Of a stretch of 48,113 bases of DNA, positions 9,001 through 15,000 are shown one piece after another. Origin of the DNA: a plasmid; the sequence record NZ_CP136362.1; one strand, given 5' to 3'. The position numbers are program-made. Positions within the stretch are counted from its first letter, which is position 1; every line of letters starts with the position of its first letter.

Positions 9001-12000
9001 CCCGATATGCAGGGCGGACCCAAAATTTTTCTCAGCTGTGAGGACGAACTGTCTGTAGCCTGTCCCAGGTCTCGAACAAGATGCGCCCGTCGATGGTGAG
9101 CGGTTTGTCTTGGTCGGCCAGCCAGCCGCCTATCTGGTCAACGATCCACGCGGTGTCGGCACCGATCGGGTTCCAGCCCCGCATATCGATGCCACGCCAC
9201 CCTCGCATCGGCATCCCTAAGGTTGCTACCCGCCGACCGGCTACTACAGCCACCGTTTGCCCGTCAGGAGACCACATGGCCCGCACGGAGGGGATGAGTT
9301 CTGCTACCAGTTCCACCGGCTCCATCCATGGCGGGTCAACCTCGGGCATGTCGACCATGTTTCCTGCCCGGCAGGTGCGGTCAGGCCAGGCCATCCGTCG
9401 GCGCCACCACCACACTGCGGCGGCTACCCAGGCCACCCATCCGGCTCCCAATACGGCCACAGCCCACGGGTGTCCCCACAAGGCCGCACCACCGATCAGA
9501 CCCCATCCCAGCCAGACGAGCCCGGCCATGATGGCGCAAATCCCCGTGATCGCGCCGAGCCATGTCACTGCCACGACCAATGGAACCGAAATCACCCACC
9601 ACGCCCCCACGAACCCCGGGGCCACGACAAGTGATTTCAATAGCTCGTGCCAGCCGATGCCGGTCATGATCCCGGCGGCGGCCACGACGACAGACTCAAC
9701 TATGCCGGGGCACGGGTGGCGCAGTCGTGGGGTGGCCTCGAGGAAGGGGACACACCAAGGCCACTCGGCGAGGGGGTCGACGTCCACAGTGCCGTCAAGG
9801 GCCTCCTGGTCAGAGGCGTCCTCCCCCGATAGGGCGGCATCGTAGGCAGCACGCTGTTCGGGATCAGACAGCACTTCCCAGGCGTGCTGGGCGGTTGTGA
9901 AGGCCTCGTTGGTGCCACCGGCATCAGGGTGGGTCGTTTTCGCGGTGGTGCGCCATGCCTCTTTGATCTGTGTTGGGGATGCCTGTGGTGGTATCCCCAA
10001 CACCTCGTAGAGACTCGGGTTATCAGGGGTCATTGGCGGGTGACAACCGACTCCACCTCGCCGACGGGAAGCATCTGCCCACCGGCTTTCTCAACATGCA
10101 CTGTGCCCGTGTGTCCTAGTACCGACCAGGTCACATCCCACGAAGTGATCGCGGTGACCTTATAGCCCCCGGCCGGGGCTGCCTGTTGGTAGGTGTAACC
10201 GCACGTGGGTGAGGGGGTCCCCGGTTCCACCGACTCCGTCCATGTCGTCGTGGCATCACAGTGCACGACATGACCATCACCCATATCAAACGACAAACCG
10301 TTACGTTTGGCGCTCAACGAGACAACCTGGCCCATAAACGTGATCGATTTCTGTGTAGTGGCGGTGGGGTCATCAACTGACAACCACAAAGCCTGGCCCA
10401 CTGCTGCCGAGTGCCACCGGTTAAGGTCGGGGGACGGATCGATACGAGGGGCCGCGCCGGGAAGGGTGAGCTGCAAGGCTGCGTGACGGCCCACTAACAC
10501 CGGGTCGGGCTTCGGGGTGGCCTTCTGCCCCTTTTTCGCTGGGGGATTGCATTCTTTCGCCCATTCCTGGCCGGCTGGGGTATTCGGCGCCGGTGGGAGC
10601 ATGACATCACAAGTCAAGTCCTGGTTACGGTCGGCTTCGTCTAGTTCGGCTTCGGCATCGGCGCGAGAACGCCCATCAATAGCCTCACCTTCACCATCAC
10701 CGTGGGTTTTGCCCCCATGATGGCCCCCTGTCGTGGCACCCCCACCCGCACCACCGGTGGTGTGATGGTAATCCACCTCAGTACGCACATCGTAGCCAGG
10801 ACCATCCGTGTCTGTATGGCCACTGAAGTCTCCATTATCTGCGAGGGCGGGTAGTGAGGTGGTGGCGAGGGTCAGGCCCAGCACGGCCGCGGTGATTACT
10901 TGACGTCGCATGAGGAAACCTCCACTCCGTTACGTGCGATCATTTTGATGGTGCCCTTCTTATCGCGGGCATACCAACTGTCGACGTGTGTGAGCCGGCC
11001 ATGGTCAGCCTGTCCGTGGCGGTCCACCGATCGGATGGAGCTGCCGTCTTCGCACGATTCCAAGGCGATAGCGGCCTCGGGGTAGGTGGTATCACCCTTT
11101 TTCTCCCGCACCACAGTGATCTTTGAGGCTCCCGACTTCCATGTGAGACCTAGACCCGAGATTTGGTGCATGAAGGTCATGTAGTTCTTGAGGGCCTGGC
11201 CGGTGGCGTAGTTCGACAGGGTCGCGGGTGCGGGTTCCCCGGGTACCAGGCCACCCTTCTTCTCCAACTCGAAGACGTTGGTGTGCAAAGTGCGGTAGAT
11301 GTTTTCGGCGTCGGTCGCGCTGATCGCCCCCGCCGTGGGGGTCGGGCTAGGGGCAGGACTCGCCGAGACCGTGGAGGCACTTGGTGCCGGTGTAGGGGCC
11401 GATGTTGAGCCTGTCGAGTGGCAGCCGACCGTAAGAGCAGCGACTGCTACCGCAGCCACGATGATGCGATGATGATGCATGAAAACCTTTCTAGCAAAAC
11501 AAATGAGGCGCAGGAGCATTCATGAGGCTTTCCTGCCCAAGTGAGTGACTGTATCGATGATCCGGGTGGTGTCCTCGTTGAGGTCGACGCCCAGTCGGCG
11601 TGCGGTAGCCGACAGGTGATCGACCAGCTCAGCGACCTTGTCCATGTTCCCGGCCTGGTATTCGGTGCGCAGACAACCGGCGACCAGGTCCTCATGATCG
11701 GGAGACACCAGTAGCCCTTGGGTCAGCGCCCACCGGGCCAGCCCCAGGTCCCCGGCTTCCAGGGCCCGGTCTGTCACTTGGAGGGCAGCATCGACGATGC
11801 GGGCCTCCACGTGGTACATCGACGCCCTGAACTGGCGAAGATCCGAGTCAGGAACCCCAGCGAAGACCCGTCCGCGGCCCAGCTTCAAAATGGCCACCAG
11901 TGTGGCCGTCTCAGCGGTGTTAATGCCTGCCCCGGCCACAGCAGCGTCGATCAAGTCCACATCTGTGACGATCCGCTCATCGAGCCGGTAGCCGCGCGTC

Positions 12001-15000
12001 GCCGCCGGCATGTAAGCCACCCCGGCATCGTCGGCTCCCAACCAGTGTCGCAGGTGTGTAGCAATCGAGCGCACCGTCGACGCTGATAGCCCCAAATCAT
12101 CGGCGATAGTCGCCCCCGATACCCCCGGATGCTCAGCAATGTAGAGAGCCAACTGTTGGCAGCGCCACGGGGAGCGCCCAACGGTTCCAGCGGCACCTGT
12201 GATGTCGGGGTGGCCGATGATGGATAGGACCGGATGGTCGGAGCCTAGCGGGTCGATGTCGTCGATGGGGAAGGGGGTGTCGGTGCCGGGTTGGTCGGCG
12301 TCGACACGAACCTGGTCGGTGGCCTCGTCGGTGTTGTCGAGGGCCTGGTTGGCTTCGTCGATGATGTCGTCGATGTCGACGTTGGATAGGTCGATGCCGC
12401 CGGTCAGGGTGGTCAGGCGGATACTCGGGCGGGCTCGCCTGCTCGGGGTAGATTCTTCCTCGTCGATGGGGCCGGTGGTGGGCTCGTCGTCGGCGTCGTG
12501 GTTCCACCAGCCGGCGGGTTCGTAGTCTGCGGCGGCGGAGTTGGCGAGTAGTTCAACCATGCGGTTGTACAGGTCGGGGGAGAGGGTTTGAGGGTGGATG
12601 TGCCAGCCGAGGGGAGCCACGTCGGCGGCTAGTGGGTCACCTGTCAGGGTGAGGGACCATTCGTCTGGGCTGGTGGGGCTGGTTGTTACCGCGGCGACTG
12701 ACACGCGGGGAAGAGCCTCGACGAGGCTGGCGAGGCGGTTGCGGTGGTCTTCGGTGAGTTCGGTGTCGAGGAGGATCACTTCGGCGTCGAACCCGTCGGA
12801 GATGGCGGGGTCGGCTCGGTGAGCGGCGAGGGGGCTTCCTTCGGTGAGGATGTGTCGCTGGTCGTCGGCGCGAGCTTCCAGGGTGGTGAGGAGGGCGTCC
12901 ACGTCGGTGGCGCGGGTCAGGGTCGGAGACTCTAGTGCGTCTTCTAGGCCCGGGCACACCTGGCCGACCAGGGTGACGTTGACCTCGTCGGACCAGTCAC
13001 AGGTGGCCAGTTCCACGGCGATCGCGGCGAGGGCCGCGTCGACCTGGTCGTCATCGGCGATCAGGTGCAAGGTTCCTGCGGCTTCCAAGTCGATGAGGAT
13101 GTGGGCGCCGTCGTCGTCGCGTCCCAGTGTGACCAGAGACGGCCACGGAGCCGCTTGGTTGTCATCGGTGTGGGCTAGCAGGTCGTCGATCCGGTCGGCG
13201 GTGAGGGTCCACACCGATCCGTCGGCGGCCAGCTCCACCGCCTCAGGATGGTCGGGGGCCGCCTGGGATAGCAGCAGGTCGATCCGGTCGTCATCGACGC
13301 GGGCGGCCAGCAGGGGTGGCAGCGGGTGCCCGCAGTGGTGGCACCATGCGCCGATCGCGCGGAGCGCCTGGTCGAGGCAGGTGATCGTCAGAGTGTCAGT
13401 CGCCCCGGTGCTGCGCAGCGCTATCTCGGCAGTTTGGGCGTCCGGGCTGGGCAGGGTCATGGCCTTGCCGCGGGGCTGGCGGGTGAACCGGGTCCGGTAG
13501 CGGCGGTTGAGGGTGGTGATCAGTCCGGCGACCAGCACCAGTCCGACGCTGGCGGTCAAACCCACCTGGATTGGGGACAGGGCGTCCTCGTCGCTGGCCT
13601 TGTCCGCTGCGGCGGTATCCGTATGGATTGGGTGCTCGTCGCTGGTCGAGTGGCCGGCAGAGGCCGGAGCTGGGGTCACCGTGTGGGTCGGAGTAGTTGG
13701 GGTGGCCGGCGTCGGGGCGGGCGTGGCTTTGTGGGCAGGCGCAGGCCGTCGCGTGGGCGTGTGGGCTGGGGTGGCGGCCTTCGCGTGGGTCGACGCCGAG
13801 TGGTGTGGCGGCGTGGCGTCGTGGCGGAGGGGCCCGGGGATGACGAGTTTTTGGCCCACGGCTAGATCGGAATGGGCATCGATACCGGAAGCTTCAGCGA
13901 TTTTATGGTACTGGGCGCCGTCACCGTAGTAGTGCTCGGCGATCTTCCACAGATACTCCCCCGCTTTAACCGAGTGGATCGCGGCCGTGTTCTTAGGAAC
14001 CGGCAGGATCAGTTTCTGGCCGACTTTCAGCTCTGAGTGCGGGTCGATACCGGAGGCTTCGGCGATACGACGGAATTGGGCGCCGTCACCGTAGTAGTGC
14101 TCGGCGATCTTCCACAGGTAGTCGTTGGCCCGCACCGTGTAGGTCTTCCAGATTTTCGGAGTGGTGGAGGCGTCCGGGGCCTGAGAGGTGGTGGCGGGGC
14201 TGTCCTGGGCGGGGGCCGCGTGTGCCGGTCCAGCCTGGGCGGCGACCGCCACATGGGTGGCCTCGGCGGCGTGAGCCGTGCTTGTGGCTGCCGGTGCGGC
14301 CGCGAACGCGGCAATGAGGAGACCGGCTGCCACTCGGCGCACTAGGCGAGGGCCGGGCATGTGCCAGTGCAGCCGCTGCCCTGAGAGCATCGTCACCGCT
14401 TCGGCTGCGACGGCCAGGGCGAACCATGCCCACCCGATCCAGCCGATGAGGCTGACCAGCCACACCAGCACCGACCCGGTCATGTCTGGGGTAACCAACA
14501 GATGCCGCACATGGGCCCATGACAGGCCCGAGGGTACTAGCGGGGCGCCTGCGGCCACGAGCCCGGCCGGTAAGCCGGCTATCACCACCAGCAGTGCCAC
14601 CAGGGCACCGATACGACGTATCACTGTCATGGGCGTTCTCCCGGTCCCACAAGCTGAGCATGGGCCTGTCCATGCCCCCTTACCTGGCTGATTCCGATCG
14701 CTGACAGGAACACTGTCGGCCGACTTTGAGACGTGGTCACCGTGATGGTCGACCCGTCCTCCTGCACCGACCCGTCCACCCCGGCAGCAGATAGTGCCTG
14801 GCGGGCCGCTTGGACTGCTACGGCCGCCCCGTCGTGGCCAGCTAGCTGCGGTGTCGCTGCCGCATCAGTTCCGGCGCGGGATGCCGCAACCGCCGCGTCC
14901 TGGGCCGCCTGGGTTGCCGATATCTGACGGGACCCGTCAAAAACCAGGCCGGCCATGACCAGAATCACTGGCACCATGAGCAGCATCCACACCGACACCG

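Follow-up and report, generated by a model that had tools for sequence, protein, structure and literature searches.

Gene Content of the Plasmid tad Locus

The window analyzed here is the whole stretch of 48,113 nucleotides from a plasmid of Cutibacterium acnes (sequence record NZ_CP136362.1). The pilus plasmids of C. acnes are linked to acne-associated and prostate isolates. The upstream part of the tad operon of this plasmid occupies 14627..22432 on the minus strand (-), and encodes ParA-like, RHH, RcpC/SAF, TadZ-like, TadA/CpaF, TadB, TadC, Flp (15823..16017 (-)), two TadE, and TadG-like proteins. Downstream of them lies the gene in question, an uninterrupted open reading frame (ORF) at 11520..14630 (-), which starts with ATG and encodes a protein of 1036 amino acids (aa; 109.6 kDa, isoelectric point 4.9). 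The protein carries LysM domains outside the membrane, as predicted from its topology, and a C-terminal domain whose model resembles the SARP family of transcriptional activators. It is, on balance, probably a membrane-anchored SARP-type activator dedicated to one actinobacterial type of Tad (Flp) pilus locus.

The start ATG of the gene overlaps the stop codon of the TadG-like gene (ATGA), and its stop codon TGA abuts the next ATG. The original prediction for this locus placed the gene last among the large genes of the tad operon. Its location at the distal end of the operon is correct, but it is not the final gene; three co-directional genes follow it.

The region 11000..15000 of the window shows 95% identity to the C. 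acnes plasmid pIMPLE-HL096PA1 (NC_021086.1) and 82% to plasmids of C. modestum. The ortholog in pIMPLE-HL096PA1 is PAGK_2369 (PAGK_RS11975, WP_015588743.1), annotated as "LysM peptidoglycan-binding domain-containing protein". It was given the Pfam domains "LysM, BTAD" and labelled TadB in Table 2 of Kasimatis et al. 2013 (PMC3666418). The combination of LysM and BTAD is thus already on record, in databases and in this one table. The possibility that the gene is an artefact, with two ORFs fused or separated by a frameshift, was ruled out; the ORF is intact, full-length orthologs are up to 98% identical, and the architecture of a hydrophobic N-terminus with three transmembrane (TM) segments, LysM, a further TM segment, the middle domain, and the SARP domain is kept in 66 of 71 complete orthologous ORFs.

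Domain Architecture and Predicted Topology

A Kyte-Doolittle scan revealed four hydrophobic segments (aa 7-27, 52-77, 96-118, and 352-375). The first three constitute an N-terminal membrane module (14277..14612 (-)), in which the segment at aa 7-27 may be a signal peptide or an anchor. The fourth (TM4, 13506..13577 (-)) is followed by a basic flank, NRRYRTRFTRQPRGK. Two LysM domains (aa 164-210 and ~218-265; 13836..14141 (-)) were detected with Pfam PF01476 (E = 1.2e-19), and the pair is bordered by Pro/Thr/Ala-rich linkers.

Lysine and arginine together number 2 in the N-terminus, 1 and 4 in loops 1 and 2, respectively, and 7 in the 20 aa that follow TM4. This positive-inside pattern is kept in 51 relatives, where the medians are 2, 1, 3, and at least 6, and acidic residues are confined to loop 1. 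At least six lysine or arginine residues are present in the 20-aa window after TM4 in all of these relatives (51/51). Because of this conserved pattern, the N-terminus is predicted to be inside, the LysM pair outside, and everything after aa 376 inside. Cleavage of the first segment as a signal peptide would not alter this predicted placement. Both the two LysM repeats outside the membrane and the N-terminal TM helices with a later TM helix flanked by positive charges had been proposed in the original prediction, and both are supported, the former by Pfam and the charge-based topology, the latter by the hydropathy scan and the residue counts in the protein and its 51 relatives.

The following 450 aa had been described as a long acidic cytoplasmic region. 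Fold comparison indicates instead that aa ~389-705 (12516..13466 (-)) constitute a folded domain, a degenerate FtsK/SpoIIIE/EccC-like alpha/beta P-loop domain, and just aa ~713-795 correspond to an acidic linker. The linker (12231..12494 (-), aa ~713-800) contains 27% aspartate and glutamate and is modelled at low confidence, with a predicted local distance difference test (pLDDT) score below 50 at model residues 329-361. In its predicted structure, the middle domain has the FtsK-type RecA-like alpha/beta fold. The motifs of active ATPases are missing. The P-loop position reads LHLIADDDQVD (aa 521-531), and in none of the 83 family ORFs (0/83) is there a Walker A motif, [AG]xxxxGK[ST], at this position, where the query has IADDDQVD. 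The Walker B position reads EVILLDTE in the query, compared with EIVLVGVE, EIVLLAGD, and HIILVGHP in relatives, and its acidic residues are thus variable. Pfam and NCBIfam scans of the middle region alone revealed no ATPase family. The profile of the middle domain, compared with solved structures, matched KorB and ChpT alone, at insignificant levels. Without the Walker motifs, the FtsK-like domain is, as judged from its sequence, catalytically dead.

SARP-Type C-Terminal Domain

Neither Trans_reg_C (PF00486) nor BTAD (PF03704) matched the query even at E <= 10 in the Pfam and NCBIfam scans; the only Pfam match of its C-terminus was TPR_19 (E = 0.0018). BTAD was matched by six of 21 homologous C-termini (best E = 5.7e-9), and precomputed BTAD matches exist on distant relatives. 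A BTAD-positive homolog used as a single query against solved structures had no match. As sequence profiles did not lead to solved SARP structures, fold comparison was needed.

The AlphaFold2 model of aa 795-1036, built with an alignment of 21 homologs, has a pLDDT of 93.6. It shows the OmpR-type topology, in which a beta-sheet at the N-terminus and three helices lead to a wing with the motif GYRLD (aa 880-884), and seven helices follow. In the Foldseek search against PDB, the top five matches were the SARP domains of AfsR (8hvr_I and 8k60_J) and EmbR (2ff4 and 2fez), with E from 5e-6 to 2e-4, TM-scores of 0.62-0.67, and ~255 aligned columns covering both the winged helix-turn-helix (wHTH) and BTAD. 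The AfsR matches have E of ~5e-6 and a TM-score of 0.66. All matches beyond AfsR and EmbR were generic TPR proteins with E > 0.03. In the model, the C-terminus is a SARP fold, in which an OmpR-type wHTH (aa ~801-889; 11964..12230 (-)), delimited by AlphaFold secondary structure, Foldseek, and a helix conservation table, is directly followed by a BTAD-like, all-helical and TPR-like domain (aa 890-1036; 11523..11963 (-)). The wHTH with GYRLD and the BTAD claimed in the original prediction are thus corroborated by AlphaFold and by the Foldseek matches to AfsR and EmbR, but not by Pfam or NCBIfam, which miss both domains in the query.

The recognition helix is SASTVRSIATHLRHWLG (aa 849-865; 12036..12086 (-)). 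Its family consensus is T-R-(N/R)-(S/T)-x-x-S-(R/K)-(L/A)-R-(R/K)-W-L-G. In AfsR, the DNA contacts of the recognition helix are R87, T88, S91, R92, R94, and K95 (PMC10936776). When AfsR was mapped onto the family by alignment of the S-R-L-R-K motif, not by structural superposition, the contacts S91, R92, and R94 were found to be kept, T88 and K95 mostly kept, and R87 less often. S, R/K, R, and R/K are present in 27, 33, 37, and 21 of the 37 distinct helices, respectively.

A Large Family Associated with Tad Loci

The original prediction regarded the coupling of a SARP to a LysM sensor as unusual. It is not an isolated case. The first homolog search yielded 147 relatives, including those from Streptomyces and Kitasatospora, some of which are annotated as "YgaU/DNA-binding SARP family transcriptional activator". 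The profile of the middle domain matched 3365 representatives of 50%-identity clusters, 1351 of them at E <= 1e-30; most are 950-1250 aa in length and contain the middle domain at ~aa 380-780. One 10-residue pattern, derived from an 8-sequence sub-alignment, found relatives in 156 species-level genomes, and some of the genes found with it are plasmid-borne. Named relatives are nearly all from Actinomycetota (including Propionibacteriaceae, Microbacterium, Arthrobacter, Nostocoides, Cellulomonas, and Geodermatophilus). Among these otherwise actinomycetotal matches, locus L010 belongs to a metagenome-assembled genome labelled Terriglobus (Acidobacteriota), which is probably a binning error.

Synteny was counted in 54 sampled loci, each with at least 7 kb of upstream sequence. 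Genes on the same strand upstream of the family gene encode TadA in 52, TadB/C in 50, and TadE/G in 52 of these loci. In most cases, the family locus is a tad cluster on a chromosome, and conjugation genes are lacking around it. Chromosomal examples are seen in Friedmanniella luteola and in Streptomyces tauricus, where the gene is positioned between TadG and the prepilin peptidase. The family gene thus regularly belongs to one kind of actinobacterial Tad locus. The literature on tad in Micrococcus luteus was examined for mutants of an ortholog, but the tad clusters of this species, whose Tad pili serve DNA uptake (PMC4322843), do not contain the family gene. Functional characterization of the family, as a SARP with LysM, FtsK, or tad, was not found in the literature searched.

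Direct Repeats Upstream of tad Genes

SARPs bind direct repeats on the same strand, 11 or 22 bp apart, which overlap the -35 element, with 8 bp between the 3' repeat and the -10 element (PMC10936776, PMC10972967). A candidate operator with comparable geometry is present at 23310..23351 (-). The core GACAAC is directly repeated three times, with start positions 23350, 23329, and 23317 and spacing of 21 and 12 bp. It is the sole such array in the window; 0.035 pairs are expected per shuffled window. The array heads the tad cluster and precedes the ATG (23253) of a sigma-like gene by ~45-95 nt. It is conserved in pIMPLE-HL096PA1 and in the plasmid of C. modestum F0672, while the spacers between the repeats diverge. 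A block adjoining the first GACAAC, CTTGTCAGAGCGGTCTTTGCAAAGT (23352..23385 (-)), is conserved in three Cutibacterium plasmids except for one C/T difference, and it holds an inverted copy of GACAA.

The sigma-like gene (22567..23253 (-)) encodes 228 aa from the ATG, and its ORF is open to a GTG at 23295. Its product was called a sigma-70 family factor in PMC3666418. The similarity to ECF sigma factors is weak, with sub-threshold matches to Sigma70_r4_2 (0.009) and the SigE family (0.001). At least 18 of these tad loci contain a homolog, placed either upstream of the operon or in divergent orientation after the family gene, and direct repeats always precede it wherever upstream DNA is available. 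The sigma-like gene is probably the first target of the GACAAC array. No sigma-70 consensus promoter was found in 22400..23800, which fits dependence on an activator.

The GACAAC motif and its spacing recur at the heads of tad clusters and upstream of the family gene in ~30 distant loci. Pairs of GGACAACAC with 20-bp spacing are found directly upstream of the family gene in ~28 loci, and at least 13 loci have three to four copies at the cluster head, with spacing of 20, 21, and 12 bp. The GACAAC arrays are all co-directional with the operon, and only one stray pair was seen elsewhere in 1.39 Mb. An NANNNT hexamer follows the 3' repeat at exactly 8 nt in each of 12 head arrays (12/12). In F. 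luteola, two copies of CGGACAACAC, 20 bp apart, lie downstream of TadC and ahead of the family gene, and the first gene of its cluster is also preceded by related copies. Other repeats are observed in other clades. GGCAAG is repeated two or three times with a 12-bp period upstream of the sigma-like gene in nine further loci. In locus L065, five to six 11-bp repeats of CCAT(A/G)CAGA are present between the sigma-like gene and the tad genes. Altogether, arrays of the SARP type, with periods of ~12 and 20-21 bp, are found in the tad promoter regions of the window and ~40 distant loci. De novo repeat screens in other clades returned mostly coding repeats with a period of 12 or 21, and the arrays retained were the non-coding ones beside the sigma-like gene or at the head of the operon. 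The "GAGGTC" array of L036 and the "CAAAAGCC" array of L016 were left as uncertain.

Further elements were observed in these loci. At the tad-cluster head of L081 (~155..200), CT(A/G)TACCCTGACT(G/C)AACAAC is present twice in non-coding sequence with a 22-bp period. At that of L016 (~91..130), also non-coding, C(A/C)AAAGCC is present three times with spacing of 22 and 11. In Friedmanniella-type loci, conserved CCGTTCC and GGAACAG, separated by 17 nt, follow two GGACAACAC repeats and precede the family gene (~8404..8445 in L034); this element may be a hairpin or a second operator.

The promoter proposed in the original prediction as a target, 22433..22566, turned out to contain repeats of a different kind; the SARP-like array is located at 23310..23351 instead. 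The repeats at 22433..22566 are dense, centred on CTAG, and partly palindromic, including TCTAGCCG-ATAT-GCGGCTAGA. They are directly upstream of the ParA-like gene (21443..22432) and the RHH-domain gene (20839..21489). Being partly palindromic and upstream of a ParA/RHH pair, they were rejected as a SARP site and read as a partition or repressor site. Their GCTAGAC/GTCTAGC core is shared with a 14-nt inverted repeat at 23741..23789, CCCATTGCTAGACG ... CGTCTAGCAATGGG, which has a 21-nt loop. In the clade whose arrays are clearest, the RHH protein is missing, so that one rival binder of the direct repeats falls away. The region upstream of flp (16018..16117) was also searched for SARP heptamers (TCGAG) and other direct repeats, and just a CACAAT/CACAAC pair, 12 bp apart, was found. 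It is too near the ribosome-binding site for a promoter and was rejected.

Proposed Function and Alternative Explanations

We favor, with modest confidence, the interpretation that the protein is an activator tethered to the membrane. The LysM pair would anchor it on peptidoglycan and may report the peptidoglycan state or the site of pilus assembly. The dead FtsK-like domain may act as an oligomerization or docking module with no ATP turnover, by analogy with the NOD of AfsR and the DUF domain of EccC. Oligomerization would set the C-terminal SARP domains side by side, like the two AfsR protomers on DNA. These domains would bind the tandem direct repeats, whose core can be written G[AG]CAA[CG], where they overlap the -35 element of tad-locus promoters, and would recruit RNA polymerase, as AfsR does. 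The putative circuit runs from the family protein to the sigma-like factor and then to the tad operon, including the family gene, and would constitute a positive feedback loop. The regulation of pilus genes postulated in the original prediction gains indirect support from the arrays of SARP geometry at tad promoters and from the conservation of most AfsR contacts in the helix sequences of the family; the control of transfer genes and the sensing of the cell wall are putative.

Several observations weigh against this interpretation. Trans_reg_C was not detected in any of the 21 homologous C-termini (Pfam, E <= 0.01). The C-terminal sequence profile, compared with solved structures, matched TPR proteins and, weakly, DevR and CadC; neither AfsR nor EmbR was among the matches. 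The recognition helix of the C. acnes protein is an outlier in the family, R-S-x-x-T-H-x-R-H, and the net charge of its wHTH is -1. In the Cutibacterium plasmids, TGATCT or TGGTCT stands 8 nt past the 3' repeat, without an A at the second position, and in other clades no -10-like hexamer is found 8 nt from the two-copy arrays that precede the family gene. Another possible reader of the repeats is the weakly ECF-sigma-like protein, which most of the loci encode. A gene that almost always lies among structural genes in the same direction, with codons that overlap those of its neighbors, would more usually encode a machine subunit than a regulator.

This last point leads to the foremost alternative, which we consider rather unlikely: the protein could be a structural or scaffold subunit of the actinobacterial Tad machine, like FimV, HubP, and TsaP, a role which is compatible with a regulatory one. 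LysM would anchor the machine, the dead FtsK-like ring and the TPR-like BTAD would dock TadA, TadZ, or the ParA-like ATPases, and the wHTH would be a relic or serve protein contacts. The same-strand association with upstream TadA and TadE/G genes, the overlap of start and stop codons with those of adjacent genes, and the presence of ParA-like and TadZ-like ATPase genes in the same operon are as expected for such a subunit. FtsK-like folds form hexameric rings, as TadA/CpaF do. FimV and HubP have a parallel layout, in which LysM and a TM segment precede an acidic cytoplasmic part that ends in TPR-like helices. However, no FimV model was matched, and NCBIfam and Pfam scans of the whole protein gave LysM-type matches alone. 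A relic would not need the AfsR-type DNA-contact positions which are conserved family-wide, and a scaffold leaves the conserved direct-repeat arrays in the same loci unexplained. The Tad systems of M. luteus function without such a protein (PMC4322843).

A membrane-bound anti-sigma factor or sigma adaptor is improbable. Here the SARP/BTAD part would hold or present the ECF-like sigma factor, the LysM ectodomain would control its release, and the repeats would be read by the sigma-like protein or another factor. At least 18 loci contain both the sigma-like gene and the family gene, and in the AfsR complexes the SARP protomers carry sigma region 4 (PMC10936776). A sensor outside the membrane, joined by a TM segment to a sigma-binding part in the cytoplasm, is the classical layout of anti-sigma factors. 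However, the sigma-like gene and the family gene are usually neither adjacent nor co-transcribed, arrays of two to six repeats with helical periodicity are unlike a single sigma -35 element, and the sigma assignment itself is sub-threshold.

It is very improbable that the protein is a FtsK/TraB-like DNA-handling component for conjugation or DNA uptake, whose wHTH would tether or guide plasmid DNA at the pilus base, as the order of four TM segments, linker, FtsK-like domain, and C-terminal wHTH in FtsK, SpoIIIE, and Streptomyces TraB, the conjugation genes adjoining the tad locus on the plasmid (PMC5696575), and the DNA uptake by Tad pili of M. luteus (PMC4322843) might suggest, because a protein with no Walker A in 83 of 83 relatives and no conserved Walker B is no motor, most family loci are chromosomal with no nearby conjugation genes, the wHTH is of the SARP type with BTAD and not the FtsK gamma domain, and the M. 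luteus tad clusters have no family gene.

Comparison with Known Systems

The activator interpretation relates the family to SARPs such as AfsR, EmbR, DnrI, and ActII-ORF4. They share the OmpR-type wHTH directly before an all-helical BTAD, with AfsR and EmbR as the best structural matches. The helix consensus of the family also has the SARP motif S-R/K-L-R-R/K, and the candidate sites are composed of same-strand direct repeats about one or two helical turns apart that would overlap the -35 element. As in AfsR, the SARP domain is joined to a module with a P-loop fold; the partner in AfsR is NOD/NB-ARC, whereas here it is FtsK/EccC-like and, by its sequence motifs, catalytically dead. The usual SARP domain is N-terminal in a soluble protein, in contrast to the C-terminal one (aa ~801-1036) here, which is behind four TM segments with a LysM pair predicted outside. 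The gene is in a pilus operon, not in a biosynthetic cluster, and the query is missed by the Pfam models Trans_reg_C and BTAD.

ToxR, TcpP, and CadC also contain an OmpR-type wHTH, a membrane anchor, and an extracytoplasmic domain in one polypeptide, and the weak match of the C-terminal profile to CadC is to its DNA-binding domain (5ju7, E = 0.0088). Compared with ToxR and CadC, the order is inverted here, with the sensor at the N-terminus and the wHTH at the C-terminus, and the single TM segment is replaced by four. The 320-aa FtsK-like domain and BTAD are extra, and beyond the wHTH no sequence relationship with ToxR, TcpP, or CadC was detected.

The middle domain shares its predicted fold, but not its motifs, with FtsK/SpoIIIE/TraB and with EccC/EssC, including their degenerate DUF domain. 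The family differs from them in having no Walker A or B, hence no ATPase, no similarity detectable with hidden Markov models, and another type of wHTH. FimV, HubP, and TsaP likewise have LysM outside, an acidic cytoplasmic part, C-terminal TPR-like helices, and an association with a type IV filament machine; FimV and HubP, however, have neither the FtsK-like fold nor a wHTH, are from diderm bacteria, and do not match the family in sequence. The plant LysM receptor kinases (CERK1 and NFR1/5) show the same logic of extracellular LysM, TM, and intracellular output. This is analogy only; their output is a kinase rather than a DNA-binding domain, and the lineages are unrelated.

Implications for Tad Pili and SARPs

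SARPs are treated as soluble activators of antibiotic clusters. To our knowledge, no dedicated regulator has been described for the Tad/Flp pili of Actinomycetota. In this family, a single membrane protein combines a peptidoglycan-binding ectodomain with a SARP domain and, between the two, a dead FtsK-like fold, a new architecture for SARP research with a membrane tether and a pseudo-ATPase partner. It is conceivable, as a tentative extension of the activator interpretation, that a class of "LysM receptor" with SARP output on a dead FtsK-like ring couples the state of the cell wall or Tad assembly to the transcription of pilus genes. Equally tentatively, this receptor could be combined with a G[AG]CAA[CG] direct-repeat operator and a dedicated sigma-like factor in thousands of Actinomycetota, among them the C. 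acnes plasmids associated with acne and the prostate. If so, the family would represent the missing locus-specific regulator, possibly also a structural subunit, of monoderm Tad pili, and SARPs would extend well beyond secondary metabolism. The precise location of the candidate operator (23310..23351) makes the switching-on of these pili testable. The FtsK-like domain, the size of the family, its near-constant association with Tad, and the candidate operator appear to be undescribed in the literature searched.

Neighboring Genes

The three genes downstream of the family gene (9032..11519 (-)) abut or overlap one another. The first (10896..11519 (-)), whose start abuts the stop of the family gene, encodes a lipoprotein of 207 aa with the lipobox LTVGC and a Pro/Ser/Thr/Ala-rich linker. 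The second (10030..10911 (-)) encodes a secreted protein of 293 aa (30.5 kDa) with a signal peptide ending in LPALA/DNG. The latter has a conserved C-terminal domain and no Pfam match. Homologs of it lie on one side or the other of the family gene in 42 of 54 family loci, and it may be associated with the pilus or form part of an adhesin. In locus L034, a similar lipoprotein of 185 aa precedes the homolog of this secreted protein. The third gene, at the far end of the tad operon (9032..10033 (-)), encodes a J-domain (DnaJ) protein of 333 aa, and its start overlaps the upstream stop codon (ATGA). No tblastn match to the J-domain protein was found in family loci beyond the Cutibacterium plasmids. 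Further downstream, a gene at 7054..8244 (-) encodes a fusion of NUDIX and LOG/TIGR00730 (lysine-decarboxylase-like, SLOG), and it is preceded by a CopG/RHH gene (8597..8905).

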